NCBI RefSeq assembly: GCF_044324875.1
Contig: NZ_CP172185.1
Origin: Escherichia coli
GTDB taxonomy: Bacteria; Pseudomonadota; Gammaproteobacteria; Enterobacterales; Enterobacteriaceae
Direction: 5' to 3' (one strand)
Length of the DNA stretch: 64,000 nucleotides
Shown one piece after another: positions 43,494 to 64,000 of this stretch. Position 1 is the first letter of the stretch. Each line of letters starts with the position of its first letter. The position numbers were made by a program, and so were the translations under genes. The notes under the pieces are model-generated. The model made no database searches. It was not told the DNA's origin and saw only the letters and a program-made list of their open reading frames with translations.

Positions 43494-45727
<2,234 letters not shown>

Positions 45728-45784
45728 AGGAAATACATCGCGTTAAAACGGAGGAAGCGCCGCCCGAAAGCGGCGCGAAAGGAC

Positions 45785-47074
45785 TTAGCTGAACAGAGAG
45801 TAGAAGATTGCGGAGATTGCAATCAGACCCATCACGACAACGAATACGTTGCTGATGTGACCGCTGTACTTACGCATTGCCGGTACTTTCTGAATTGCGT
45901 ACATCGGCATCAGGAACAGGATCATCGCGATGATTGGGCCGCCCAGGGTTTCAATCATACCCAGGATGCTCGGGTTCAGGGTGGCAACAATCCAGGTCGT
46001 TACCAGCATGAACAGCGCAGTAATACGGTTCAGCTTGTTGATTTCGATAGACTTACCTTTACCACGCAGAGATTTAATCACCATACCGTTGAAGCCTTCA
46101 CGTGCGCCCAGGTAGTGGCCGAGGAAGGATTTGGTGATAGCGATAATCGCGATAATCGGTGCCATCCACGCGATAACCGGTGCGTTAAAGTGGTTAGCCA
46201 GGTAAGACAGAATCGAGATGTTCTGCTCTTTAGCCGCAGCCAGGTCTGCCGGAGTCAGGCTCAGTACGCAGCTGAATACGAAGAACATTACGGTCAGCAC
46301 CATCATGATGTGTGCGAATGCCAGGATCTTCGAGCATTTCTGTTCTGCCATATCGCCGTACTCTTCACGCTTCGCAACAGCGAAAGAAGAGATGATCGGA
46401 GAGTGGTTGAACGAGAACACCATTACCGGAATTGCCAGCCACAGGGTCATCCACAGACCGTTTCCGGTTGCCGATGCAGTGTCCAGAGACAGCGTTTCCA
46501 GTGCTGCGCCGTTCCACTGCGGGATCAGGTACAGAGCCAGCAGCATCAGTACGCCAACAAACGGGAATACCAGAATACTCATCGCTTTAACGATCATCTG
46601 CTCACCGAAGCGAACGATGGTCATCATACCCACGATCAGGATCAGCGACAGAATCGCACGCGGCGGTGGTGTCATACCCAGCTGGTGAGACATGAAGCTT
46701 TCAACTGTATTGGTGATTGCCACGCTATAAACCAGCAGGATCGGGTAGATAGCGAAGAAGTAGAGCAGGGTAATCAGTTTACCTGCGCCAATACCAAAGT
46801 GTTCTTCTACAACCTCGGTGATGTCTTCGCCCGGGTTTTTACCAGACAGTACGAAGCGAGTCAGACCGCGGTGAGCAAAAAATGTCATCGGGAACGCAAG
46901 GATAGCCATGATGATCAGCGGGATCATACCGCCAACACCGGCGTTGATTGGCAGGAACAGCACGCCCGCGCCGATTGCCGTGCCGTAAAGGCCCAGCATC
47001 CACATGGTGTCTGTCTTGCGCCAGGCACTACGAGAGTCTTTCGACGCAATCGTGCTGGTTTGAGTCGTTTCCAT
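45785..47074 (-). CDS. sdaC: serine:H+ symporter (HAAAP family)
   Basis: 429-aa multi-TM ORF. Confidence 0.95.
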
Positions 47075-47629
47075 CTATTTCTCCTGGAGGAATGCAAATA
47101 ATTCAGCTTTTAGCCAGTTCAGCCCGGGAAGGTGCCTGACCGTAAAAATGAAATCTGTCTATCGGCGATGGCTTAATCATTTACCGCCGTAATAATTTGA
47201 GGGCGGAAAGATACACACAAGTTATGTATCTATCAGTGATCTTGATCCCAAATACAATAATCTACTTGGAAGATAGATTATCCCAACGCTTTACTCTGTA
47301 AATCAAAAGTAAAAGAGAATTTAAGGGCAATATTTGCCCATTAAACGACATCTGACTTCTTCCGGGGCGCGCAATATATGTAGGTTGAACTGAAAAAATC
47401 AATACTTTTAGTTAATCATGGCGATAATTTCTTTTTCATAGCGATAAAATGTGGTTTATGAAAATAGGTAAACGTTTGCGTTACAACATAAATTGTATGA
47501 CATATTAACTGTAATGATATTTATCGCGTGAGGGTGGTAAGAAACATTCATATAACAAATGAAATAAATTGATGGGTATGTGACCAAAAACGAGAAAACC
47601 CGGCAACAAACGTCACCGGGGGAGGGAGA

Positions 47630-48994
47630 TTACGTGCAGATTTCGTAGCAAGGGATGTAGGCTGAGCCTGGCAACTTCATACGATGCTGGGCAACAAAAC
47701 CCTGTAGCAGGTCATCCATACGACGCATAATCTCTTTATCGCCGTTGATTTTATAAGGACCAAACTCTTCAATGGCGCGAATACCGACTTCTTTTACGTT
47801 ACCCGCCACAATACCGGAGAACGCACGGCGCAGGTCGGCAGCCAGCACTTCAACGGGTTGATCCGGGTAAAGCTTCAGATTAGCCATATTCTCGTGAGAC
47901 GGCTCAAACGGCATTTGCAAATCTGGCGCAATGCGCATTGACCAGTTAAAGCTGTAGGCATCGCCTGTGTCGCGGCGATTTTCTTTCACCAGCGGCATCG
48001 ATTTTTTCATCTGACGAGCGACTTCAGCGGCGTCATCAATGATGATGCGGTAATGGCGGCGCGCGTTTTCACCCAACGTATGCACGACAAACTCGTCCAG
48101 TACGCGGAAGTAGTCGGCGCTCTCTTTCGGGCCGGTGAGGATCAATGGTAAAACCTGATCTTTGTTGGCCGGGTTCATTAAAATTCCCAGCAAATACAGC
48201 AACTCTTCTGCCGTACCCACACCGCCAGGGAAGATAATGATACCGTGAGCGATACGGACAAACGCTTCCAGACGTTTTTCGATATCTGGCATGATGATCA
48301 ATTCGTTGACCAGCGGGTTAGGCGGTTCAGCGGCGATAATCGACGGCTCTGTCATACCAATAAAACGACTGTCTTTGTAACGCTGCTGTGCGTGTCCGAC
48401 CGCAGCGCCTTTCATCGGCGCTTCCATCGCTCCCGGACCACAGCCGGTGCAGATATTCAGCTCACGCAGGCCCAGCTGATTCCCGACGCGACGGGCATAC
48501 AAATACTCGTTTTCGTTAATTGAGTGCCCGCCCCAGCAGACCACCATATTTGGCGCTTCACCGACATGCAGTGCGCGAGCGTTACGCAAGATGGAAAAGA
48601 CCAGGTTAGTGATGTGGACGGAGTTGTCGAGATTCAGGTTGGGAAAACGAACGGTGTTATGGATTTGCCCGTAAACGAAGAGAATGTCACGCAGAACCGC
48701 GAACAAGTTGGCCTGCAAAGCGCGAATAATTCGCCCATCGACAAAAGCCTCTTCCGGGGGATTAATCAGTTCCAGCTTTACGCCGCGTTCACGGCGCAGG
48801 ACGTTAATATCGAAATTTTCAAAACGAGACAGCAATTCTTTGCTGTTATCGGTCAAACTACCGGAGTTCAGTACGGCAAGTGAACAGTTGCGAAACAGTT
48901 GATAGAGGTCGCTGCTGGCGGTGCGTTTAAGCATATCCACTTCCAGCTGCGACAACATATCCATGGAGCCAAGCGGGCTAATATGTGTAATCAA
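47630..48994 (-). CDS. ppnN: pyrimidine/purine nucleotide 5'-monophosphate nucleosidase (LOG family)
   Basis: 454-aa ORF recognised as YgdH/PpnN. Confidence 0.9.
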
Positions 48995-49105
48995 GAAAAA
49001 CTCCTTATGGGACGAATATCGTCATTCCCTTTGATTACAATAGCCCTGCCTGATGACCTTTCACAACCTTCTGCGTGAATCCAGCACGCAAAATTGAGAA
49101 AAAAT

Positions 49106-49954
49106 TTATTGCCGAACCAGTCTTGTGGTCGATGGGACAAAATCGCTATTACTGCGCCACGGGTTAATGTCCAGACCGCCACGACGGGTATAACGTGCGT
49201 AAACGCTCAATTTCTCTGGCTGGCAGAAGCGTAACAGGTCATTAAAGATGCGTTCCACGCACTGTTCGTGGAACTCGTTGTGATGACGGAAAGAAACCAG
49301 GTAACGCAGCAGTTTTTCTCTGTCAATTTGGCGTCCACGATACTGAATTTGGATCGATCCCCAATCTGGTTGATGGGTGATCAGGCAATTTGATTTCAGC
49401 AGGTGGCTGACGAGCGTCTCTTCTACTACTTTTTCGCCACTGGTGGCATTCTCCAGATAGTCAGTAGTGAATTCATAGTTATCGATAGTGATATCCTGGT
49501 CATCAATGCAAGTGCCATTGAAATGACCTATCGGTTGGCCTTCCAGTTCATCAAGACGATATAACGCCACGCTAACCTTACCCTGAGCGCAAGTGCTTAA
49601 GTCGCGCTCCAGCGTCTGGCGCACCTCATCCCAGTTATTAAAACGCGTCTGGTTAAAACTGTTGAGATAGAGCTTAAAACTCTTCGACTCAATCAGATTT
49701 GCGCTGGTGTAATCAAGTTCAACATGACCGACGGCGACCTGCGGCAAACCTTTCGCATTCAGCCAGGAAAGTTCATATAGCGTCCAGATATCCGTACCGT
49801 GAAAAGGCAGGTTATCCGCTTTCAGACCCAGCGGATCGCGATTCAGACTACGCGGAACGCCTTGCAGTAGGCTGGCGTCATAGGTATCCCGGTAATCGGT
49901 TGATTTTCCAAGAGTCAGGCCCGCAAGTGCCTGATGGTTTGCATAAGAAGACAT
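49106..49954 (-). CDS. queF: NADPH-dependent 7-cyano-7-deazaguanine (preQ0) reductase
   Basis: 282-aa ORF, two-domain QueF type. Confidence 0.92.
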
Positions 49955-50021
49955 GTTTCACCGTCATAAACCAGATAAACTAAACGACAAGTGTATCTGG
50001 TTTAAGTGAAGAGAGAAATTA

Positions 50022-50567
50022 GTGGACGATTTGACCGCACAAGCCCTGAAAGATTTTACTGCACGCTACTGCGATGCGTGGCATGAAGAGCATAAAAGCT
50101 GGCCGTTGAGTGAGGAACTGTACGGCGTTCCTTCACCGTGCATTATTTCAACCACCGAAGACGCCGTATACTGGCAACCCCAGCCGTTTACCGGGGAACA
50201 AAATGTAAACGCGGTTGAACGCGCTTTTGATATTGTGATACAACCCACAATTCATACCTTTTATACGACTCAGTTTGCCGGGGATATGCACGCGCAGTTT
50301 AGCGATATTAAACTGACATTGCTGCAAACCTGGAGTGAAGACGACTTCCGTCGGGTGCAGGAAAATCTGATTGGTCATCTGGTGACTCAGAAAAGGCTAA
50401 AATTGCCGCCCACGCTATTTATCGCGACGCTGGAAGAAGAGTTAGAGGTGATCTCGGTGTGTAATCTCTCCGGTGAAGTGTGTAAAGAGACGCTGGGAAC
50501 ACGTAAACGGGCGCATTTAGCCTCAAATCTTGCGGAATTCCTTAATCAACTTAAGCCTCTTCTGTAA
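50022..50567 (+). CDS. syd: SecY-interacting protein Syd
   Basis: 181-aa ORF divergent from queF. Confidence 0.92.
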
Positions 50568-50777
50568 TCCAAATACCCCATCTGGTTGTGAGAGATCTCT
50601 TACAGACTCTGTAGGAGATCGCCAGGAAATAAGCGAATACTTAAAAAGATAAGAATCGTTATTTTCATTTAAAATCAATATATTGCTTGTTAATCCTTAA
50701 CTTTCATATTAAATTTTCCTTAAGGCATTGTCTGTAAGCGCCTTGTAAGACTTCGCGAAAAAGACGATTCTATCTTC

Positions 50778-51143
50778 GTCGACAGGGAGTCAGACAACGA
50801 AGTGAACATCAGGATGATGACACTTCTGAAGGACACACCAGGATGGTGTTTCAGGGAAAGGCTTCTGGATGAAGCGAAGAGGATGACGCAGGACGCGTTA
50901 AAGGACACCTCCAGGATGGAGAATGAGAACCGGTCAGGATGATTCGGTGGGTCAGGAAGGCCAGGGACACTTCAGGATGAAGTATCACATCGGGGTGGTG
51001 TGAGCAGGAAGCAATAGTTCAGGATGAACGATTGGCCGCAAGGCCAGAGGAAAAGTTGTCAAGGATGAGCAGGGAGCAACAAAAGTAGCTGGAATGCTGC
51101 GAAACGAACCGGGAGCACTGTGAATACAGTGCTCCCTTTTTTT
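50778..51143 (+). ncRNA. csrB: CsrB small RNA (CsrA-sequestering, multiple GGA motifs)
   Basis: About 366 nt with roughly 15-18 repeats of CAGGA(U/A/C)G-like motifs (catCAGGATGatg, acCAGGATGgtg, tCAGGATGatt, ttCAGGATGaag, ttCAGGATGaac, cAAGGATGag ...) and terminal hairpin gggagcactgtgaatacagtgctccc + T7; boundaries approximate. Confidence 0.85.
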
Positions 51144-51188
51144 ATTCCTGCTATTCTTCGCGGCAGTTTTTCTTATTGAGGTTGCTTT

Positions 51189-51518
51189 ATGACCACTCAT
51201 GACCGCGTTCGTCTCCAGTTGCAGGCGCTTGAAGCGTTACTGCGTGAACATCAGCACTGGCGAAACGATGAACCCCAGCCGCATCAATTTAATAGTACCC
51301 AACCGTTCTTTATGGACACCATGGAACCACTGGAGTGGTTGCAGTGGGTGCTGATCCCGCGAATGCACGATTTGTTAGAAAACAACCAGCCGTTACCGGG
51401 CGCTTTTGCCGTTGCTCCCTATTATGAAATGGCGCTGGCGACGGACCACCCGCAACGCGCGCTTATTCTGGCTGAGCTGGAAAAACTGGATGCTCTTTTT
51501 GCGGATGATGCGAGCTAA
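51189..51518 (+). CDS. yqcC: DUF446-family protein
   Basis: 109-aa ORF; conserved position upstream of truC. Confidence 0.85.
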   Translation: MTTHDRVRLQLQALEALLREHQHWRNDEPQPHQFNSTQPFFMDTMEPLEWLQWVLIPRMHDLLENNQPLPGAFAVAPYYEMALATDHPQRALILAELEKLDALFADDAS

Positions 51519-52300
51519 TGCTGGAAATACTCTATCAGGATGAATGGCTGGTTGCGGTAAATAAACCCTCCGGCTGGCTGGTTCACCGCAGCTGGCTGGA
51601 TCGCGACGAGAAAGTAGTGGTCATGCAAACCGTGCGTGACCAGATAGGCCAGCATGTGTTTACTGCTCATCGTCTGGACCGACCAACTTCTGGTGTGTTG
51701 TTGATGGGATTATCCAGCGAGGCCGGACGGCTGCTGGCACAACAGTTTGAACAGCACCAAATCCAGAAACGTTACCATGCGATTGTGCGCGGCTGGTTGA
51801 TGGAAGAAGCAGTTCTGGATTATCCACTGGTGGAAGAACTGGACAAAATCGCTGATAAATTTGCCCGCGAAGATAAAGGCCCACAGCCAGCAGTGACGCA
51901 TTATCGCGGTCTGGCGACCGTAGAAATGCCGGTAGCGACCGGACGTTACCCGACCACGCGCTACGGCCTGGTGGAACTGGAGCCGAAAACCGGACGCAAG
52001 CACCAGCTCCGTCGCCATCTTGCCCATTTGCGCCACCCGATTATTGGCGACAGCAAACATGGTGATTTACGCCAGAATCGCAGCGGTGCTGAGCATTTTG
52101 GCCTTCAGCGGTTAATGTTGCATGCCAGTCAGTTGTCATTGACGCATCCTTTTACTGGCGAGCCGCTGACTATTCACGCGGGCCTGGACGACACCTGGAT
52201 GCAGGCGTTATCACAATTTGGCTGGCGCGGTCTGCTTCCTGAAAATGAAAGGGTTGAGTTCAGTGCGCCATCGGGTCAGGATGGAGAGATAAGTTCCTAA
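51518..52300 (+). CDS. truC: tRNA pseudouridine(65) synthase
   Basis: 260-aa ORF, RluA-family motif [12 protein letters not shown]; start overlaps yqcC stop (TAATG). Confidence 0.92.
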
Positions 52301-52317
52301 TCCAGGGAGAAAACGGT

Positions 52318-52767
52318 ATGGCGGAAATTGGTATTTTTGTCGGCACCATGTACGGAAATTCGCTGTTAGTGGCGGAAGAAGCAGAAGCAATTCTGACCGC
52401 ACAGGGCCACAAAGCAACGGTATTTGAAGATCCTGAATTAAGCGACTGGCTGCCCTATCAGGATAAGTATGTTCTGGTGGTTACGTCCACGACCGGGCAG
52501 GGCGACCTTCCTGATAGCATTGTGCCGCTCTTTCAGGGAATCAAAGATACCCTGGGCTTCCAGCCGAATCTGCGTTATGGCGTGATTGCGCTCGGCGACA
52601 GTAGTTATGTGAATTTCTGCAATGGCGGCAAACAGTTCGATGCCTTGTTGCAGGAACAGAGCGCTCAGCGAGTGGGAGAAATGCTGTTGATTGACGCCAG
52701 TGAGAACCCGGAACCGGAAACGGAATCAAATCCGTGGGTCGAACATTGGGGCACGCTGTTGTCCTGA
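52318..52767 (+). CDS. yqcA: flavodoxin-like protein
   Basis: 149-aa ORF with flavodoxin fold signature ([10 protein letters not shown]..). Confidence 0.9.
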
Positions 52768-53201
52768 TACGTTCAGCGAGCGGTAAATGCCGTTTTAGCG
52801 GTGCTGAATCGAATCTTTTCAGGCAAATGCCAGTAAAAACTGCTTCATAGCGCGGATTTTTACTGGCGTTTGCCTGGAGTCAAGCGATCCATTTCATACT
52901 CTTCTTTATTTCTTCGTTTTAACCCTTCCTTTCTTGTTCTTGTTTTCATTTCCGTGAAGTGGATTCCACCGTCCAGGGCTAATGCCAAAATCGGGCCTCA
53001 TTGAACGCATTAATGTTGTGTTGTTGCACGGTGAGCCACTATGGCGCGCTTTTTATACTGCTATTGCCAGATATAAACACGCGCCGTATTCGGCGAACGA
53101 CCTATAAAAACGGCAAAAAACACCCTACGTCACCTCTGATTTCCTGGCGATGTCGCAGTCCAGAGTGAGCGTGGCTAACGCGAATTTTCAGGAGTGCAAC
53201 A

Positions 53202-54554
53202 ATGAGTTCTTTAAGTCAGGCTGCGAGCAGTGTGGAAAAACGCACAAATGCTCGTTACTGGATAGTGGTGATGTTGTTTATCGTCACATCCTTCAACTAC
53301 GGCGACCGCGCTACGCTTTCTATTGCCGGTTCGGAAATGGCCAAAGATATCGGCCTTGATCCCGTGGGAATGGGCTATGTGTTCTCTGCTTTCTCATGGG
53401 CTTATGTTATCGGACAGATCCCTGGTGGTTGGTTGCTGGATCGTTTTGGTTCAAAACGCGTCTACTTCTGGTCGATCTTTATCTGGTCGATGTTTACCTT
53501 GCTGCAAGGCTTCGTCGATATTTTTAGTGGATTCGGCATTATCGTTGCCCTGTTTACGCTGCGCTTCCTGGTCGGGCTTGCTGAAGCGCCATCTTTCCCC
53601 GGCAACAGTCGCATTGTTGCGGCCTGGTTTCCGGCGCAGGAAAGGGGAACGGCGGTGTCGATTTTTAACTCCGCTCAATACTTCGCAACGGTGATCTTCG
53701 CGCCGATTATGGGCTGGCTGACGCATGAAGTGGGCTGGTCACACGTCTTCTTCTTTATGGGCGGTCTGGGCATTGTCATCAGCTTTATCTGGTTGAAAGT
53801 CATCCACGAGCCAAATCAACATCCGGGTGTAAATCAGAAAGAGCTGGAGTACATCGCCGCGGGTGGCGCGCTGATCAATATGGATCAGCAAAATACCAAA
53901 GTTAAAGTGCCGTTCAGCGTGAAGTGGGGGCAGATCAAACAGCTGCTCGGGTCACGGATGATGATCGGCGTTTATATCGGTCAGTACTGTATCAACGCCC
54001 TGACTTACTTTTTCATTACCTGGTTTCCGGTTTATCTGGTGCAGGCGCGTGGGATGTCGATCCTGAAAGCGGGCTTTGTGGCTTCCGTTCCGGCGGTTTG
54101 CGGTTTTATCGGCGGTGTGCTGGGTGGGATTATTTCCGACTGGCTGATGCGCCGCACGGGATCGCTGAACATTGCGCGTAAAACACCGATCGTAATGGGC
54201 ATGTTGCTGTCGATGGTGATGGTGTTCTGCAACTACGTCAACGTTGAGTGGATGATCATCGGTTTTATGGCGCTGGCCTTCTTCGGTAAGGGCATCGGGG
54301 CGCTGGGTTGGGCAGTAATGGCAGATACCGCGCCAAAAGAGATCAGCGGTCTTTCCGGTGGCCTGTTCAACATGTTCGGTAACATTTCTGGCATCGTCAC
54401 GCCAATCGCAATTGGTTATATCGTTGGCACGACTGGCTCGTTTAATGGGGCGCTGATTTATGTTGGTGTTCATGCCTTAATCGCGGTGCTGAGCTACCTG
54501 GTGCTGGTGGGCGATATCAAGCGTATCGAGCTGAAACCTGTCGCGGGGCAATAA
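53202..54554 (+). CDS. gudP: D-glucarate/galactarate transporter (MFS)
   Basis: 450-aa multi-TM ORF at head of gudPXD. Confidence 0.92.
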
Positions 54555-54555
54555 G

Positions 54556-55896
54556 ATGACGACACAATCCAGTCCTGTTATTACTGATATGAAAGTCATT
54601 CCGGTCGCCGGGCACGATAGCATGTTGCTTAATATTGGTGGGGCGCATAACGCATATTTCACTCGCAATATTGTGGTACTCACCGATAACGCCGGGCATA
54701 CCGGCATTGGTGAAGCGCCAGGCGGAGAGGTGATTTATCAGACACTGGTCGATGCTATTCCGATGGTGTTGGGCCAGGAAGTTGCGCGCCTGAATAAAGT
54801 GGTTCAGCAGGTGCATAAAGGTAATCAGGCAGCCGATTTTGATACCTTCGGCAAAGGTGCCTGGACTTTTGAATTGCGCGTTAATGCCGTGGCGGCGCTG
54901 GAAGCCGCCTTGCTTGACCTGCTAGGTAAGGCGCTGAATGTTCCGGTCTGCGAACTGTTGGGGCCAGGCAAGCAACGCGAGGCTATTACCGTCCTCGGTT
55001 ATCTGTTTTATATCGGTGATCGGACCAAAACCGATCTTCCTTATCTGGAAAATACGCCGGGCAACCATGAGTGGTATCAATTGCGGCATCAGAAAGCGAT
55101 GAACAGCGAAGCCGTTGTGCGTCTGGCGGAAGCCTCACAGGATCGCTACGGCTTTAAAGATTTCAAACTTAAGGGCGGCGTGTTACCTGGCGAGCAAGAA
55201 ATCGACACTGTTCGTGCATTGAAGAAACGCTTCCCGGATGCGCGGATTACCGTTGATCCCAACGGTGCATGGCTGCTTGATGAAGCTATTTCTCTGTGCA
55301 AAGGGCTGAATGATGTTCTTACCTATGCTGAAGATCCATGCGGAGCAGAACAGGGGTTCTCCGGACGTGAAGTGATGGCGGAGTTTCGACGGGCGACCGG
55401 CTTGCCCGTCGCGACTAACATGATCGCCACCAACTGGCGCGAAATGGGCCATGCGGTGATGCTCAATGCGGTAGATATTCCACTTGCCGATCCGCATTTC
55501 TGGACGCTTTCCGGTGCAGTCCGCGTAGCGCAGCTTTGCGACGACTGGGGGCTGACCTGGGGCTGCCATTCCAATAATCACTTCGATATCTCTCTGGCGA
55601 TGTTTACCCATGTGGGTGCGGCGGCACCGGGTAATCCTACCGCTATCGATACCCACTGGATTTGGCAGGAGGGCGATTGTCGCCTGACCAAAAATCCGCT
55701 GGAGATTAAAAACGGAAAAATTGCCGTTCCTGATGCGCCCGGTCTGGGCGTGGAACTGGACTGGGAGCAGGTACATAAGGCGCATGAGGCCTATAAACGT
55801 CTGCCTGGCGGTGCGCGTAACGACGCGGGCCCGATGCAGTACCTGATCCCCGGCTGGACCTTTGACCGTAAACGTCCCGTTTTCGGCCGTCATTGA
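54556..55896 (+). CDS. gudX: glucarate dehydratase-related protein (enolase superfamily paralog)
   Basis: 446-aa ORF clearly paralogous to the next ORF (shared blocks e.g. [37 protein letters not shown]). Confidence 0.92.
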
Positions 55897-55916
55897 TTTT
55901 GAAAAAGGACATAAAT

Positions 55917-57257
55917 ATGAGTTCTCAATTTACGACGCCTGTTGTTACTGAAATGCAGGTCATCCCGGTGGCGGGCCATGACAGTATGCTGATGAATCTG
56001 AGTGGTGCACACGCACCGTTCTTCACGCGTAATATTGTGATTATCAAAGATAATTCTGGTCACACCGGGGTAGGGGAAATTCCCGGCGGCGAGAAAATCC
56101 GTAAAACGCTGGAAGATGCGATTCCGCTAGTGGTGGGTAAAACGCTGGGTGAATACAAAAACGTTCTGACGCTGGTGCGTAATACATTTGCCGATCGTGA
56201 TGCCGGCGGGCGCGGTTTGCAGACATTTGATTTGCGGACCACTATTCATGTGGTTACCGGGATAGAAGCGGCAATGCTGGATCTGCTGGGGCAACATCTG
56301 GGGGTTAACGTGGCATCGCTGCTGGGCGATGGTCAACAGCGTAGCGAAGTCGAAATGCTCGGTTATCTGTTCTTCGTCGGTAATCGCAAAGCCACACCGC
56401 TGCCGTATCAAAGCCAGCCGGATGATAAATGTGACTGGTATCGCCTGCGTCACGAAGAAGCGATGACGCCGGATGCGGTGGTGCGCCTGGCGGAAGCGGC
56501 ATATGAAAAATATGGCTTCAACGATTTCAAACTGAAGGGCGGTGTACTGGCCGGGGAAGAAGAAGCAGAATCTATTGTGGCACTGGCGCAACGCTTCCCA
56601 CAGGCGCGTATTACCCTCGATCCTAACGGTGCCTGGTCGCTGAACGAAGCGATTAAAATTGGTAAATACCTGAAAGGTTCGCTGGCTTATGCAGAAGATC
56701 CGTGTGGTGCGGAGCAAGGTTTCTCCGGGCGTGAAGTGATGGCAGAGTTCCGTCGCGCGACTGGCCTGCCGACCGCAACCAATATGATCGCCACCGACTG
56801 GCGGCAGATGGGCCATACGCTCTCGTTACAATCCGTTGATATCCCGCTGGCGGATCCGCATTTCTGGACGATGCAAGGTTCGGTACGTGTGGCGCAAATG
56901 TGCCATGAATTTGGCCTGACCTGGGGTTCGCACTCTAACAACCACTTCGATATTTCCCTGGCGATGTTTACCCATGTAGCCGCTGCTGCACCGGGTAAAA
57001 TTACTGCTATTGATACGCACTGGATCTGGCAGGAAGGCAATCAGCGTCTGACCAAAGAACCGTTTGAGATCAAAGGCGGGCTGGTACAGGTGCCGCAAAA
57101 ACCAGGATTGGGCGTAGAAATCGATATGGATCAGGTGATGAAAGCCCACGAGCTGTATCAGAAACATGGGCTTGGTGCGCGAGACGATGCGATGGGAATG
57201 CAGTATCTGATTCCTGGCTGGACGTTTGATAACAAGCGCCCGTGCATGGTGCGTTAA
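55917..57257 (+). CDS. gudD: D-glucarate dehydratase
   Basis: Start at ATG 55917 ([20 protein letters not shown]..), 446 aa; ORF track is 5'-extended. Confidence 0.93.
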
Positions 57258-57331
57258 GACAGAAAACCAAAACCGGCTTCATAAGAAGTCGGTTTGAGAT
57301 TACTGACGAAGTGGTTTACGGGGCCGGTTTT

Positions 57332-57433
57332 CCCCCTCGCCCTTTCAGGGAGAGGGGCGGGGTGAGGGTAATCATTCGCACTTGCGTTGGCCTGTTCCCC
57401 TCACCCTAACCCTCTCCCCGGAGGGGCGAGGGG
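57332..57433. repeat. large imperfect palindrome (about 37-bp G/C-rich arms, about 28-nt spacer) between convergent gudD and barA
   Basis: Left arm ccccctcgccctttcagggagaggggcggggtgaggg vs right arm cccctcaccctaaccctctccccggaggggcgagggg are near reverse complements. Confidence 0.55.
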
Positions 57434-57497
57434 ACTGTCTGTGCTGCTCCCAGCATTGGCATTGGACGGAACCTATTTTGACTCGACAAGACGTCCA

Positions 57498-60254
57498 TTA
57501 CCCGAGAATTTTGCTGGCTTCGCGCGCGACATTATCCATCTCGTCCAACAGTTCCAGCAGCTCCGGCTCCAAATCTTCTTCTTTAGTACCGCTACGTAGC
57601 TGTTGTTCGATCAGCTGGCAGAGATTCTTCATACGCGGCACACCGCTATAGCCGCAACTGCCATGCAGTTTATGAATCAAATCAACCAGGCCTTCCGGGT
57701 TTTCTCCAACCAGCTGTTCCTCAACTTTGTTGCGAACTTCAGGCAGGAAATCGAGTAACATTTGCAGCATATCGCGCGCTAAATCGGTTTTTCCTGCTGC
57801 CTGGCGTAGTGCCAGTTGCCAGTCGAGGGTCGCATTCGGGTTCACCACAATTTCGTTGACTTCGGGCGTCACGACGCGAGACGAAATACCGCTGCCAGGC
57901 TTGTAGCGCAACAACAAATTATGCAATCGCTCTTCTTCAATCGGTTTCGCCAGATAATCGCTCATCCCTGCGCCAAGCAGCTTCTCTTTTTGCCCGGCCA
58001 TTGCATGCGCCGTTACCGCGATAACTGGCGTTTGTTGCTGATGGGGGAGCTGGTGGATGAGTTCGCAGGCCCGAATGCCGTCCATGTCCGGCATTTGAAT
58101 ATCCATTAAGATCAAATCGAACGGCATCTGTTTCGCCCGTTCAACCGCCTGATGCCCGCTATCGCAAAGTTCCACATGTTGCACCATATCTTCCAGCAAT
58201 GCGCCGATAAGTTTCAGGTTAGCGGGGTTGTCATCAACCGCCATGACTGTCATTGCCAGCTTACTTTCATCGGTTACAGGCAAAAGCGTGTTTTGTTTGT
58301 GATGACAAAATTCCGTCAGGGCAGGTAACAGGCGCGTAGGTGTTAATGGTTTCAGCAGACACGCGCCGATACCATCTTGCTTAAGTTTTTCAGCATTGAC
58401 TTGTGCATGGCAAGGAAGTGCCAGCATCAGGAAATCGGTCATCGATACCGCTTTCGCTAATCGCTCATGTTGCATTGTTAGCGGCTCGCGGAAGGTCACC
58501 GCAATGCCTAATAACATCATGTCGTAATGCGCGGGAGGCAGCGCGGAGAACGTTGGGCTATAAACCACTTCCAGCGGCGTTTCACTTAAAATATCCAGCG
58601 TGCATTGCGCTGCTGCGGAGTTTGGTTCGACATAGGCCAGGCGCTTGCCGGCGAGGCACTGGGTGGATGGCCCTTCGATAATAATGTTCGGGTTCAGATC
58701 GAGATTAATGTGGAACCAGAAAGTTGAACCGCGATTCGGCTGGCTATGGAACGAAATATCGCCGCCCATTTCATTAACCAGTTTTTGTGTAATCACCAGC
58801 CCCAGCCCGGTGCCACCATGACGGCGGGAAATACTGGCATCAGCCTGTCGGAAGGCCTGGAATAAGCGCGATTGATCGCGTTCAGGAATACCAATGCCGG
58901 TATCCCGAATCTGCACTTCAATCTGCACTTTAGTATTACTCAGCGCACGTTTTTCTACCAGAATATCAATGTTGCCATTCTCGGTGAATTTAATTGCATT
59001 CCCTACCAGGTTAGTGATGATTTGCTGTAATCGCAGTGGGTCGCCAATTACGTTATCGGGCACGTCGCTCTTAATATTGAGCGTCAGTTCCAGCCCTTTA
59101 TCGTGAGAAGAATGTGCCAGCAGGGTAACGACTTCATCCAGCGTGCTGCGTAGTGGGAATGGAATACTTTCCAGAATCAGCTTACCTGCTTCCAGTTTCG
59201 AGAAGTCGAGAACATCATTAATAATTGCCAGCAAATTATTTGCCGAACGTTCAATCGTATTCAGGTGATCGCGCTGCGTTGGTGTTAATTCTGTTTTCAG
59301 CGTCAGGCGGGTAAAGCCAATAACACCATTCAGTGGTGTACGCAGCTCGTGTGACATATTTGCCAAAAACTCGGATTTAATACGCGCCGCTTCCTGGGCG
59401 CGCTTTTTCGCCAGATCCAACTCAACGTTCTGAATTTCCATCTGCTCCAGCGTTTCACGCAGATCGGACGTCGCCTGGTCGATATTGTGCTGCATCTCTT
59501 CGTGATAAGCAGCCAGCGACATTGCCATCGAGTTGATACCGTTTTTCAGCATATCCAGCTCGCCGAGCATAAATCCTTCCACCCGGCTGTCGAGTTGCCC
59601 GCGACGGATGCGGTCGACGGTATTCACCATGTTGCGAATCGGACCGGTTACATCGCGCATTAAGCGCCAGCCAAAAATAAGCGCAATACCGATACAAAAC
59701 AGCATCATCACGCTGGAAATAAAGATCTCTTTATATTGCTGCAAGCGAACCGATTTAAGATCCAGCTCCAGCGCAATATATCCCAGCATATTTTGACTAT
59801 TTTTGGCATCGCTACTGGGCGATTCGTCGGGGGAGTAACTCTCAGAAATAATCGGCGTGCGGAGGATCATAATATCGCCGTCACGAGTGACAGTGAGCTG
59901 GCGAGGAAACGGCACGTTGCTGCCGAGCTGCATTGATGAAGGATCAAGATGAAAATTGGAGGTGACAAAGAGTCGGTTATTTTCATCATAAACCGAAATC
60001 GCGCGAACAATATCGGAATGGCGACGATGCAGTACGCTTATTAACTGACCGATAGATTCGCGATTTTGCAGGCTCATGCCATATTCAGTAGAAACTGCAA
60101 GCGGCTCAATAATGCTGGCTCCGGCATCTTCCAGTTGACGCTGCAAGTCGTTATAGCGATGCACAACGAAAAAGATACTCAGCAATAAACCAATAAGGAC
60201 GGTCGGTGCCAGGATCAGAATCATCATGCGTGCGCGCAGGCTGTAGTTGGTCAT
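57498..60254 (-). CDS. barA: hybrid sensor histidine kinase BarA (HAMP-HisKA-HATPase-REC-HPt)
   Basis: 918-aa ORF with H-box ([12 protein letters not shown]), receiver and HPt regions. Confidence 0.95.
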
Positions 60255-60310
60255 GGAGTTCCGTTATGGGACAATTAAGGTCACACTGTTAAATTGAGAA
60301 AGTCTCGCCA

Positions 60311-61612
60311 ATGGCGCAATTCTACTCTGCAAAACGACGCACGACGACGCGTCAGATCATAACTGTTTCAGTCAACGACCTCGACTCTTTTGGTCAGGGC
60401 GTGGCGCGACATAACGGCAAAGCGTTATTTATTCCTGGATTACTGCCACAGGAAAACGCGGAAGTTACTGTTACTGAAGATAAAAAACAGTATGCCCGCG
60501 CTAAAGTCGTGCGCCGGTTAAGCGATAGCCCGGAACGCGAAACGCCACGCTGCCCTCATTTTGGCGTATGCGGTGGCTGTCAGCAACAACACGCCAGCGT
60601 GGATTTACAGCAGCGAAGCAAAAGTGCGGCACTCGCCCGATTAATGAAACACGAAGTCTCTGAAGTGATCGCCGATGTTCCCTGGGGCTATCGCCGTCGC
60701 GCGCGTTTAAGTTTGAACTACTTACCGAAAACACAGCAACTTCAGATGGGGTTTCGCAAAGCGGGCTCCAGTGACATTGTCGACGTTAAACAATGCCCCA
60801 TTTTAGTGCCCCAACTTGAAGCATTGCTGCCCAAAGTCAGGGCATGCCTGGACAGCTTACAAGCTATGCGCCATCTTGGTCATGTTGAACTGGTACAGGC
60901 AACCAGCGGCACGCTGATGATTTTGCGCCATACCGCACCGCTAAGTTCGGCTGATCGCGAAAAACTGGAACGCTTTTCGCATTCTGAAGGCCTGGATCTG
61001 TATCTCGCCCCCGATAGTGAGATACTCGAAACCGTCGCTGGTGAGATGCCCTGGTATGACTCAAACAGGTTGCGCTTAACTTTTAGCCCGCGCGATTTTA
61101 TTCAGGTCAATGCGGGTGTGAACCAAAAAATGGTAGCGCGTGCGTTGGAATGGCTGGATGTGCAACCTGAAGATCGCGTACTGGATTTGTTCTGCGGTAT
61201 GGGCAACTTTACACTGCCATTAGCGACACAAGCTGCCAGTGTGGTGGGTGTAGAAGGTGTTCCGGCGCTGGTGGAAAAAGGCCAGCAGAATGCGCGTCTT
61301 AATGGCTTACACAATGTGACGTTTTATCACGAAAATCTTGAAGAAGATGTCACAAAGCAGCCGTGGGCGAAAAACGGCTTCGATAAAGTGTTGCTGGACC
61401 CGGCGCGAGCAGGTGCCGCAGGTGTTATGCAGCAAATTATAAAACTGGAACCTATTCGTATAGTTTATGTATCCTGTAACCCTGCAACGCTGGCTCGGGA
61501 TAGCGAAGCGTTATTAAAAGCAGGATATACCATTGCGCGACTGGCGATGCTGGATATGTTCCCACACACGGGACATCTGGAATCGATGGTACTTTTCTCG
61601 CGCGTTAAATAG
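60311..61612 (+). CDS. rlmD: 23S rRNA m5U1939 methyltransferase (TRAM + Fe-S + SAM MTase)
   Basis: 433-aa ORF with Cys cluster [14 protein letters not shown]. Confidence 0.93.
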
Positions 61613-61659
61613 TTGCGATTTGCCGATTTCGGCAGGTCTGGTCCCTAAAGGAGAGGACG

Positions 61660-63894
61660 ATGGTTGCGGTAAGAAGTGCACATATCAATAAGGCTGGTGA
61701 ATTTGATCCGGAAAAATGGATCGCAAGTCTGGGTATTACCAGCCAGAAGTCGTGTGAGTGCTTAGCCGAAACCTGGGCGTATTGTCTGCAACAGACGCAG
61801 GGGCATCCGGATGCCAGTCTGTTATTGTGGCGTGGTGTTGAGATGGTGGAGATCCTCTCGACATTAAGTATGGACATTGACACGCTGCGGGCGGCGCTGC
61901 TGTTCCCTCTGGCGGATGCCAACGTAGTCAGCGAAGATGTGCTGCGTGAGAGCGTCGGTAAGTCGGTCGTTAACCTTATTCACGGCGTGCGTGATATGGC
62001 GGCGATCCGCCAGCTGAAAGCGACGCATACCGATTCTGTTTCCTCCGAACAGGTCGATAACGTTCGCCGGATGTTATTGGCGATGGTCGATGATTTTCGC
62101 TGCGTGGTCATCAAACTGGCAGAGCGTATTGCTCATCTGCGCGAAGTAAAAGACGCGCCGGAAGATGAACGCGTACTGGCGGCAAAAGAGTGCACCAATA
62201 TCTACGCGCCGTTGGCGAACCGTCTTGGGATTGGACAACTGAAATGGGAGCTGGAAGATTACTGCTTCCGTTATCTCCACCCGACCGAATACAAACGCAT
62301 CGCAAAACTGCTGCATGAACGCCGTCTCGACCGCGAACACTATATCGAAGAGTTTGTCGGCCATCTGCGCGCTGAGATGAAAGCTGAAGGCGTTAAAGCT
62401 GAAGTGTATGGTCGTCCGAAACACATCTACAGCATCTGGCGCAAAATGCAGAAAAAGAACCTCGCCTTCGATGAGCTGTTTGATGTGCGTGCGGTACGTA
62501 TTGTCGCCGAGCGTTTACAGGATTGTTATGCCGCACTGGGGATAGTGCACACTCACTATCGCCACCTGCCGGATGAGTTTGACGATTACGTCGCTAACCC
62601 GAAACCAAACGGTTATCAGTCTATTCATACCGTGGTTCTGGGACCAGGTGGCAAAACCGTTGAGATCCAAATCCGCACTAAACAGATGCATGAAGATGCA
62701 GAGTTGGGTGTTGCTGCGCACTGGAAATATAAAGAGGGCGCGGCAGCTGGCGGCGCACGTTCGGGACATGAAGACCGGATTGCCTGGCTGCGTAAACTGA
62801 TTGCGTGGCAGGAAGAGATGGCTGATTCCGGCGAAATGCTCGACGAAGTACGCAGCCAGGTATTTGACGACCGGGTGTATGTCTTTACGCCGAAAGGTGA
62901 TGTCATTGATTTGCCTGCGGGATCAACACCGCTGGACTTCGCTTACCACATCCACAGTGATGTCGGACACCGCTGCATCGGGGCAAAAATTGGCGGGCGC
63001 ATTGTGCCGTTCACCTACCAGCTGCAGATGGGCGACCAGATTGAAATTATCACCCAGAAACAGCCGAACCCCAGCCGTGACTGGTTAAACCCAAACCTCG
63101 GTTACGTCACAACCAGCCGTGGGCGTTCGAAAATTCACGCCTGGTTCCGTAAACAGGACCGTGACAAAAACGTTCTGGCTGGGCGGCAAATCCTTGACGA
63201 CGAGCTGGAACATCTGGGGATCAGCCTGAAAGAAGCAGAAAAACATCTGCTGCCGCGTTACAACTTCAATGATGTCGACGAGTTGCTGGCGGCGATTGGT
63301 GGCGGGGATATCCGTCTCAATCAGATGGTGAACTTCCTGCAATCGCAATTTAATAAGCCGAGTGCCGAAGAGCAGGACGCCGCCGCGCTGAAGCAACTTC
63401 AGCAAAAAAGCTACACGCCGCAAAACCGCAGTAAAGATAACGGTCGTGTGGTGGTTGAAGGTGTCGGTAACCTGATGCACCACATCGCGCGCTGCTGCCA
63501 GCCGATTCCTGGAGATGAGATTGTCGGCTTCATTACCCAGGGACGCGGTATTTCAGTACACCGCGCCGATTGCGAACAACTGGCGGAACTGCGCTCCCAT
63601 GCGCCAGAACGCATTGTTGACGCGGTATGGGGTGAGAGCTACTCCGCCGGATATTCGCTGGTGGTCCGCGTGGTGGCTAATGATCGTAGTGGGTTGTTAC
63701 GTGATATCACGACCATTCTTGCCAACGAGAAGGTGAACGTACTTGGCGTTGCCAGCCGTAGCGACACCAAACAGCAACTGGCGACCATCGACATGACCAT
63801 TGAGATTTACAACCTGCAAGTGCTGGGGCGCGTGCTGGGTAAACTCAACCAGGTGCCGGATGTTATCGACGCGCGTCGGTTGCACGGGAGTTAG
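61660..63894 (+). CDS. relA: GTP pyrophosphokinase, (p)ppGpp synthetase I
   Basis: 744-aa ORF recognised as RelA. Confidence 0.95.
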   Translation: MVAVRSAHINKAGEFDPEKWIASLGITSQKSCECLAETWAYCLQQTQGHPDASLLLWRGVEMVEILSTLSMDIDTLRAALLFPLADANVVSEDVLRESVGKSVVNLIHGVRDMAAIRQLKATHTDSVSSEQVDNVRRMLLAMVDDFRCVVIKLAERIAHLREVKDAPEDERVLAAKECTNIYAPLANRLGIGQLKWELEDYCFRYLHPTEYKRIAKLLHERRLDREHYIEEFVGHLRAEMKAEGVKAEVYGRPKHIYSIWRKMQKKNLAFDELFDVRAVRIVAERLQDCYAALGIVHTHYRHLPDEFDDYVANPKPNGYQSIHTVVLGPGGKTVEIQIRTKQMHEDAELGVAAHWKYKEGAAAGGARSGHEDRIAWLRKLIAWQEEMADSGEMLDEVRSQVFDDRVYVFTPKGDVIDLPAGSTPLDFAYHIHSDVGHRCIGAKIGGRIVPFTYQLQMGDQIEIITQKQPNPSRDWLNPNLGYVTTSRGRSKIHAWFRKQDRDKNVLAGRQILDDELEHLGISLKEAEKHLLPRYNFNDVDELLAAIGGGDIRLNQMVNFLQSQFNKPSAEEQDAAALKQLQQKSYTPQNRSKDNGRVVVEGVGNLMHHIARCCQPIPGDEIVGFITQGRGISVHRADCEQLAELRSHAPERIVDAVWGESYSAGYSLVVRVVANDRSGLLRDITTILANEKVNVLGVASRSDTKQQLATIDMTIEIYNLQVLGRVLGKLNQVPDVIDARRLHGS

Positions 63895-63902
63895 TCTTAC
63901 AT

Positions 63903-63940
63903 AGCTGGATATGGCGTCAGCCGTATCCAGCGATATCTTT
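63903..63940 (+). terminator. hairpin terminator after relA
   Basis: gctggata-tggcgtcagccg-tatccagc stem-loop followed by a T-rich tract. Confidence 0.5.
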
Positions 63941-64000
63941 TACTCGAAGGTATTACACCTGACAGACCCGCAATTTTCAGGACAATTCAATGAATCAAAT

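Follow-up and report, generated by a model that had tools for sequence, protein, structure and literature searches.

A mazEF-free relA-mazG junction in Escherichia coli, probably an old inherited allele that carries a REP-like hairpin

The E. coli DNA analysed here (NCBI RefSeq assembly GCF_044324875.1, contig NZ_CP172185.1; a stretch of 64,000 nucleotides, called the window throughout) ends shortly after the relA gene, 11 nt into a further open reading frame. A sequence-only reading of this stretch had tentatively taken the frame starting ATG AAT CAA AT at position 63990 for the beginning of mazG, and had set this against the K-12 order relA-mazE-mazF-mazG, which the K-12 locus bears out. The locus therefore raises the question of whether the mazEF toxin-antitoxin cassette is really missing between the two genes and, if so, whether it was lost from this genome or its absence was inherited. 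Our analysis speaks for inheritance: with a probability of about 0.95, the window ends in a natural, old, inherited mazEF-free relA-mazG allele that has the family-ancestral arrangement. The genes and segments at this end of the window are the following.

57498-60254, opposite strand: barA, upstream of relA.
60311-61612: rlmD, upstream of relA.
61660-63894, + strand: relA (GTP diphosphokinase, 744 aa), from the list of open reading frames, with Pfam domains HD_4, RelA_SpoT, TGS, RelA_AH_RIS and ACT.
63895-63989, + strand: relA-mazG spacer of 95 nt without mazE or mazF, read from the sequence; the same 95-nt spacer is present in strain MEI003.
63895-63955, + strand: allele-specific 61 nt in place of the K-12 697-nt mazEF cassette, from pairwise alignment and direct reading.
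63956-63989, + strand: mazG leader of 34 nt, common to both alleles and identical in K-12 (L002 4293-4326) and MEI003.
63990-64000, + strand: mazG start, ATG AAT CAA AT, the first 11 nt (M-N-Q-I/M..), cut by the window end.

The relA gene ends in a TAG stop codon at 63892-63894, its domain architecture is complete (HD_4, RelA_SpoT, TGS, AH/RIS and ACT by Pfam), and relA is annotated in all matching E. coli genomes. From the relA stop to the mazG start there are about 95 nt with no gene between them, which is the layout of a mazEF-free allele, and an identical 95-nt layout was found in MEI003, Nissle and 2017-02-2CC. According to both the sequence and the list of open reading frames, no frame fits within this spacer. 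The constituents of a mazEF (chpA) locus were absent from it: no MazE antitoxin frame (PF04014, ~82 aa) follows relA directly, no MazF/PemK frame (PF02452, ~111 aa) overlaps a mazE stop, the cassette DNA being absent at the junction, and the operator/promoter with the ATCTACAATGTAGAT palindrome found upstream of mazE is missing, the K-12 flank in this position (flank X) being unmatched in the window's 61 nt. Searches by tblastn with K-12 MazE and MazF gave no match anywhere in the 64-kb window. The 95-nt spacer and the negative tblastn result confirmed the earlier claim of a junction without mazEF.

The identity of the downstream frame was assessed from the 45 nt at 63956-64000 (the 34-nt leader and the 11 nt of the frame), which are identical to the leader and start of K-12 mazG (45/45). 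The leader reads CACCTGACAGACCCGCAATTTTCAGGACAATTCA and contains a Shine-Dalgarno sequence, AGGA, at 63979-63982. The last 701 nt of the window matched 5,425 of 5,426 complete E. coli genomes, and the closest of them over this length, MEI003 (99.7%), has the gene order rlmD-relA-mazG-pyrG-eno with a mazG of 263 aa (PF03819) annotated to start exactly at the position equivalent to 63990. In every genome with the short junction that we inspected (MEI003, Nissle 1917 and 2017-02-2CC) a full mazG came directly after relA and was followed by pyrG and eno; ST131 and other short-junction matches are annotated with relA and mazG on the two sides of the junction. These comparisons support the identification of the frame at 63990 as mazG and not mazE, with relA and mazG adjacent, as the sequence-only reading had it. 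The 45/45 nt identity with K-12 and the closest genomes suggest that the source genome has a full-length mazG.

We then compared the spacer with the corresponding region of K-12. The window and K-12 agree as far as the relA stop, and they agree once more in the 34 nt that lead up to the mazG ATG. What lies in between is 61 nt in the window (63895-63955) and 697 nt in K-12 (L002 3596-4292), the latter with mazE (82 aa), mazF (111 aa) and their operator/promoter; the difference of 636 nt fits the annotated coordinates. In this alignment the difference between the two alleles is a replacement (61 versus 697 nt), not the simple gain or loss of a block. The 60 nt at 63895-63954 showed no likeness to the K-12 cassette beyond chance (536 of 2,000 shuffles as good), and no cassette remnant was detectable by the shuffle test in the allele-specific segment. 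Similarly, the tail of the segment matched neither the K-12 cassette (1,131 of 2,000 shuffles as good) nor the spacer of Escherichia albertii (1,347 of 2,000) better than chance. A resemblance noticed by eye, of 'AAGGTATTAC' in the window to the mazF 3' end 'GAGGAATTAC' and to 'AAGGAATTAC' in E. albertii, had suggested that the 61 nt are a mazEF deletion scar; the shuffles rejected it. Among the by-eye likenesses of the spacer that were tested, only that of its hairpin to REP elements, which are a repeat family, was significant. The hairpin and the elements that follow it are placed as follows.

63904-63931, + strand: perfect 12-bp hairpin with a 4-nt loop, a REP-like palindrome and candidate weak terminator or 3'-end stabiliser of the relA mRNA.
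63932-63941, + strand: tail GATATCTTTT after the hairpin, kept in short-allele variants.
63932-63954, + strand: second, weak predicted hairpin of 9 pairs, 3 of them G-U, which would sequester the T-run (minimum-free-energy structure, prediction only).

The hairpin, GCTGGATATGGC-GTCA-GCCGTATCCAGC, has 12 perfect pairs, 7 of them G-C, with a folding energy of -21.9 kcal/mol when taken alone, and the whole spacer folds with z = -5.1 relative to shuffles. It has the G+C-rich stem-loop of an intrinsic (Rho-independent) terminator, and a simple terminator scan marked it as terminator-like with the tail GATATCTTTT. The U-tract consists of 4 consecutive T only, the first one 6 nt past the stem, and the second hairpin is predicted to pair with this T-run. 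Thus, of the 'hairpin terminator' that had been described after relA, the hairpin is there and the word terminator is an interpretation, the T-run being short and offset by 4 nt from the stem. All 12 pairs were kept in every variant compared (four distinct sequences), among which we found several G-C to G-U changes and, in the divergent lineage L004 described below, one two-sided compensatory change of T-A to C-G; in this sample of four distinct sequences the hairpin appears constrained. In alignment with the second REP (REP2) of E. albertii approximately 25 of 30 columns matched and 0 of 2,000 shuffles were as good, a comparison made with that one element, and Citrobacter REPs at the same position look like the hairpin by eye. 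An Rfam scan of 63500-64000 returned no REP match, its sole hit (RSV_PBS, E = 0.55, inside relA) being due to chance. No second copy of the hairpin or REP core was present in the window within 6 edits, and the element is single per genome in 1,006 genomes at the level of megablast, so that the many dispersed copies typical of a REP were not seen.

To determine how widespread the short junction is, an 80-nt query (63885-63964) was searched against the 5,426 complete E. coli genomes at megablast sensitivity. It was found in 1,006 of them (18.5%), whose origins include humans, pigs, poultry and water, and each had one full-length chromosomal copy. The K-12 mazEF cassette was found in 4,419 genomes, with 0 plasmid matches. 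The two counts add up to 5,425, which is all genomes having relA; therefore the two states partition the collection, and the short junction and the cassette look mutually exclusive. The same sums imply that the short-junction genomes would have no K-12-type mazEF elsewhere, at megablast sensitivity, and the cassette is probably absent also from the rest of the source genome, of which 64 kb are visible. These counts cover the K-12-type cassette, as distinct from divergent MazF paralogues such as chpB or PemK-like copies, the latter as in AIEC NRG857c (PMC7232551). A third class of matches that covered relA alone (H26-H30) was discarded as a class of its own, these being ordinary mazEF-positive genomes in which the second BLAST piece had not been joined. 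The one remaining complete genome matched neither the relA 3' end nor the 20 kb from barA to relA, pointing to a large deletion or to a record with the wrong label. In a separate observation, E. coli SW07163 (NZ_CM129852.1, L087 2288-3354) has an IS1 directly upstream of an intact mazF and a truncated xni at its opposite end; mazE and relA are not neighbours at this place, two positions in the record match the cassette, and an IS1-mediated rearrangement has apparently split mazE from mazF.

The short allele is present in Nissle 1917, ST131/O25b:H4 and clone D i2, all of phylogroup B2, and also in porcine ETEC strains, in the pig strains EC556/EC571/EC581 and in MEI003. UPEC 536, likewise B2, has mazEF whereas the B2 strains Nissle and ST131 are without it, and strains H168-H170 have mazEF (+636 nt) although their identity to the window over 20 kb is 99.0-99.1%. 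The presence of mazEF is not a strict phylogroup marker. The window itself is probably not B2, because the 3' end of its relA resembles B2 strains less than it does some mazEF-positive ones (98.9% identity to K-12 versus 98.4% to Nissle) and its relA stop is TAG, versus TAA in B2 strains. Over positions 44000-64000 the best identity of the window among the 5,426 complete E. coli genomes was just 99.3% over 20 kb, the best matches being the pig strains EC556/EC571/EC581, porcine O139:H1 and ETEC strains, and MEI003; the source strain is therefore without a close relative in this collection.

The age of the allele was examined in divergent Escherichia lineages and in other genera. A GTDB species representative labelled E. 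coli (L005) was identical to the window over 63895-63954 (60/60 nt). A second such representative, 'E. coli' SCPM-O-B-8794 (NZ_JAATUR010000008.1; L004), carries the short hairpin allele with 89.5% identity over the same positions, and its relA and mazG are ~92% identical to those of E. coli; this genome probably belongs to a cryptic clade of Escherichia or to a different species. The spacer has therefore diverged in step with the genes beside it, and the occurrence of the short allele in L004 with the hairpin kept indicates that the allele is old. A scan with MazG as query and one genome per species gave at least 80 loci across Enterobacterales. Of the 80 listed, 77 belong to other genera (among them Citrobacter, Salmonella, Klebsiella, Enterobacter, Pantoea, Erwinia, Pectobacterium and Serratia) and the rest to E. 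albertii and the two E. coli-like lineages; none of those listed is the main E. coli representative, E. fergusonii or a further named species of Escherichia. The 3' end of relA was found upstream of mazG in 79 of the 80 loci listed, the flank of Klebsiella spallanzanii (L033) having none. No MazE or MazF was found by sequence match in any of the 80 loci listed; of the 79 counted as outside the E. coli-like group, 78 have a locatable relA end, and none of these has either gene between relA and mazG. The relA-mazG spacers among the loci listed were mostly 40-420 nt long, often with REP-type palindromes right after relA. Compared across the family in this way, relA-mazG without mazEF is indicated to be the ancestral arrangement and mazEF an Escherichia-specific insertion.

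Other genes were observed in some of these spacers. In Superficieibacter sp. 1612_C1 (L019 1566-2500) the relA-mazG spacer holds ParD (PF03693, E = 1e-18) and ParE (PF05016, E = 1e-11), and a parDE system has been reported in the same spacer of Salmonella spp. (PMC7167474), so the relA-mazG spacer is a recurrent landing place of toxin-antitoxin systems. The spacer of Buttiauxella agrestis ATCC 33320 (L043 710-2497) contains a 1.8-kb island that encodes Hcp (PF05638), a DUF4225 protein and a 109-aa hydrophobic protein without Pfam match, possibly a type VI effector-immunity set. In that of Superficieibacter electus (L017 1551-2500) we found a 112-aa hydrophobic frame, also without Pfam match.

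A different situation was encountered in E. albertii. The relA-mazG spacer of its type strain and of seven further genomes (8 strains in all; L006 2240-2500 in NBRC 107761, and the same in L088-L094) is 261 nt long and has neither mazE nor mazF. Its first ~30 nt match the operator-palindrome region of K-12 mazEF (AAATTTGTTCGTGTCTACAA-GTAGATTGA), the ~33 nt directly in front of the mazG leader correspond to the spacer between mazF and mazG in K-12 (TTAC-AACTCACTTCTGTTCTGGTCACAGGCTT), and for each of these flank matches 0 of 2,000 shuffles were as good. Two REPs lie between the flanks. The interior of the spacer showed no likeness to the interior of the K-12 cassette (490 of 500 shuffles as good), the flanks alone being shared. 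The flanks are ~90% identical to K-12, like the neighbouring genes; the backbone of the cassette is therefore old in the genus too, with the genes lost in E. albertii. The spacer of this species looks like a decayed mazEF locus that has become fixed, so loss of mazEF does happen within Escherichia. In the literature searched we found no paper describing these gene-less mazEF flanks.

Since the short hairpin allele is common to a lineage ~8% diverged and the X-mazEF-Y flanks are found in E. albertii, ~10% diverged, it is conceivable, although we consider it unlikely, that the two forms of the locus both go far back in Escherichia and have persisted side by side or passed from one lineage to another. 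The presence or absence of mazEF would then be a long-lived, possibly trans-species polymorphism kept by recombination or selection, rather than the outcome of one recent insertion into an empty site, and the allele of the window might be a clean replacement of an earlier cassette.

We also considered a secondary loss, in which an ancestor had X-mazEF-Y, the cassette was excised and replaced by a REP element, and the 61 nt are the scar instead of a site that mazEF never occupied. E. albertii, which keeps both cassette flanks without mazE and mazF and with two REPs between them, shows that a backbone as old as its ~90% identity to K-12 implies can decay, and the mazEF-positive strains nearly identical to the window over 20 kb, together with the mixed state of the B2 strains (536 with mazEF, Nissle and ST131 without), also speak for such a loss. 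Against it, neither flank is found in the 61 nt of the window, whose match to the cassette stays at the chance level, as does that of their tail to the spacer of E. albertii. L004 has the short allele too, diverged to the same degree as the genes on either side, and all other genera examined have no mazEF at relA-mazG. We regard secondary loss as doubtful, and we favour the view that the short allele of the window is not a recent loss, judging from the missing remnant and the occurrence of the allele in L004.

It is very improbable that the frame at 63990 only begins like mazG and that mazEF or another gene lies just past the window edge: only 11 nt of the frame are visible, but the 45 nt are those of the K-12 mazG leader and start, all inspected genomes with the junction run into a full mazG and then pyrG and eno, and the junction and cassette counts partition the collection exactly. 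Nothing was found in favour of an assembly error or a deletion (recent or made in the laboratory) confined to the source genome, and such an origin is hardly credible, given that 1,006 independent complete genomes of varied origin and two GTDB-distinct Escherichia lineages have the same junction.

The old, inherited mazEF-free allele that we prefer would have consequences for the expression of mazG. In this allele the first 61 nt of the spacer, around the REP-like hairpin, occupy the position of the K-12 mazEF cassette, and the last 34 nt are the mazG leader of both alleles. Transcription of mazG would for the most part be read-through that starts at the relA promoters, with the hairpin acting at most as a partial terminator or a stabiliser of the mRNA 3' end, which may set the relA:mazG ratio and lower mazG relative to relA. 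Alternatively, the hairpin and T-run could in principle terminate efficiently, and mazG would need its own promoter. We found none in the spacer apart from a promoter-like match at 63959-63986, which was discounted because its -10 element lies across the Shine-Dalgarno sequence, with its end 4 nt before the ATG; this match is probably due to chance. In K-12, mazG and mazEF are transcribed together (Gross et al. 2006, as cited in PMC5120126), and relA and mazEF have been reported as an operon in which relA has its own promoter (PMC7167474). For mazEF-free strains, relA-mazG has been described as an 'undisturbed bicistronic operon' (PMC7167474).

The absence of mazEF from relA-mazG in E. coli is already known from published work. 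Fraikin, Goormaghtigh and Van Melderen (2020) reported that mazEF is missing in many strains such as UTI89, in which relA-mazG is then intact, that the toxin-antitoxin pair was inserted between the two cistrons irrespective of function, and that another toxin-antitoxin site, when empty, is occupied by REP sequences (PMC7167474). The same paper cites Fiedoruk et al. (2015) for an uneven distribution of toxin-antitoxin systems among phylogroups. The literature uses mazEF-free strains as an argument that mazEF is dispensable, horizontally acquired and without a functional tie to relA. The phenotypes ascribed to mazEF in K-12, namely growth arrest by MazF, exclusion of phage P1 and expression of mazG from the mazEF promoter, are not to be assumed for the genome analysed here. 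Mildly new are the frequency of ~18.5%, the replacement of 697 nt by 61 nt between the alleles, the conservation of the hairpin with a compensatory change in a divergent Escherichia, and the cassette flanks without genes in E. albertii.

Compared with known systems, the window shares with the K-12 relA-mazE-mazF-mazG (chpA) locus the flanking genes and the 34-nt mazG leader, but instead of the 697 nt with operator/promoter, mazE and mazF it has 61 nt that are unrelated to them and contain a hairpin. This hairpin, GCTGGATATGGCG..GCCGTATCCAGC, is similar to the REP/BIME elements of Enterobacteriaceae in that it looks like the REP copies found at this position in E. albertii and, judged by eye, in Citrobacter and Klebsiella; it differs from them as a perfect 12-bp stem present in one copy per genome (megablast), with no second copy in the window. 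The decaying chromosomal ccdO157 system at folA-apaH (Mine et al. 2009, as cited in PMC7167474) is similar in that an intergenic toxin-antitoxin site is polymorphic across E. coli and that REP sequences are found in the unoccupied form of the site (PMC7167474). It belongs to another toxin-antitoxin family and another locus, and the window has no decayed toxin-antitoxin remnant of the kind that only E. albertii shows. The B2 strains Nissle 1917, ST131 and clone D i2 have an 80-nt junction 97.5-100% identical to that of the window. The closest counterpart is the mazEF-free relA-mazG locus of the UTI89 type, where relA is directly followed by mazG with no toxin-antitoxin genes between them, and from which the locus described here differs in nothing of substance.
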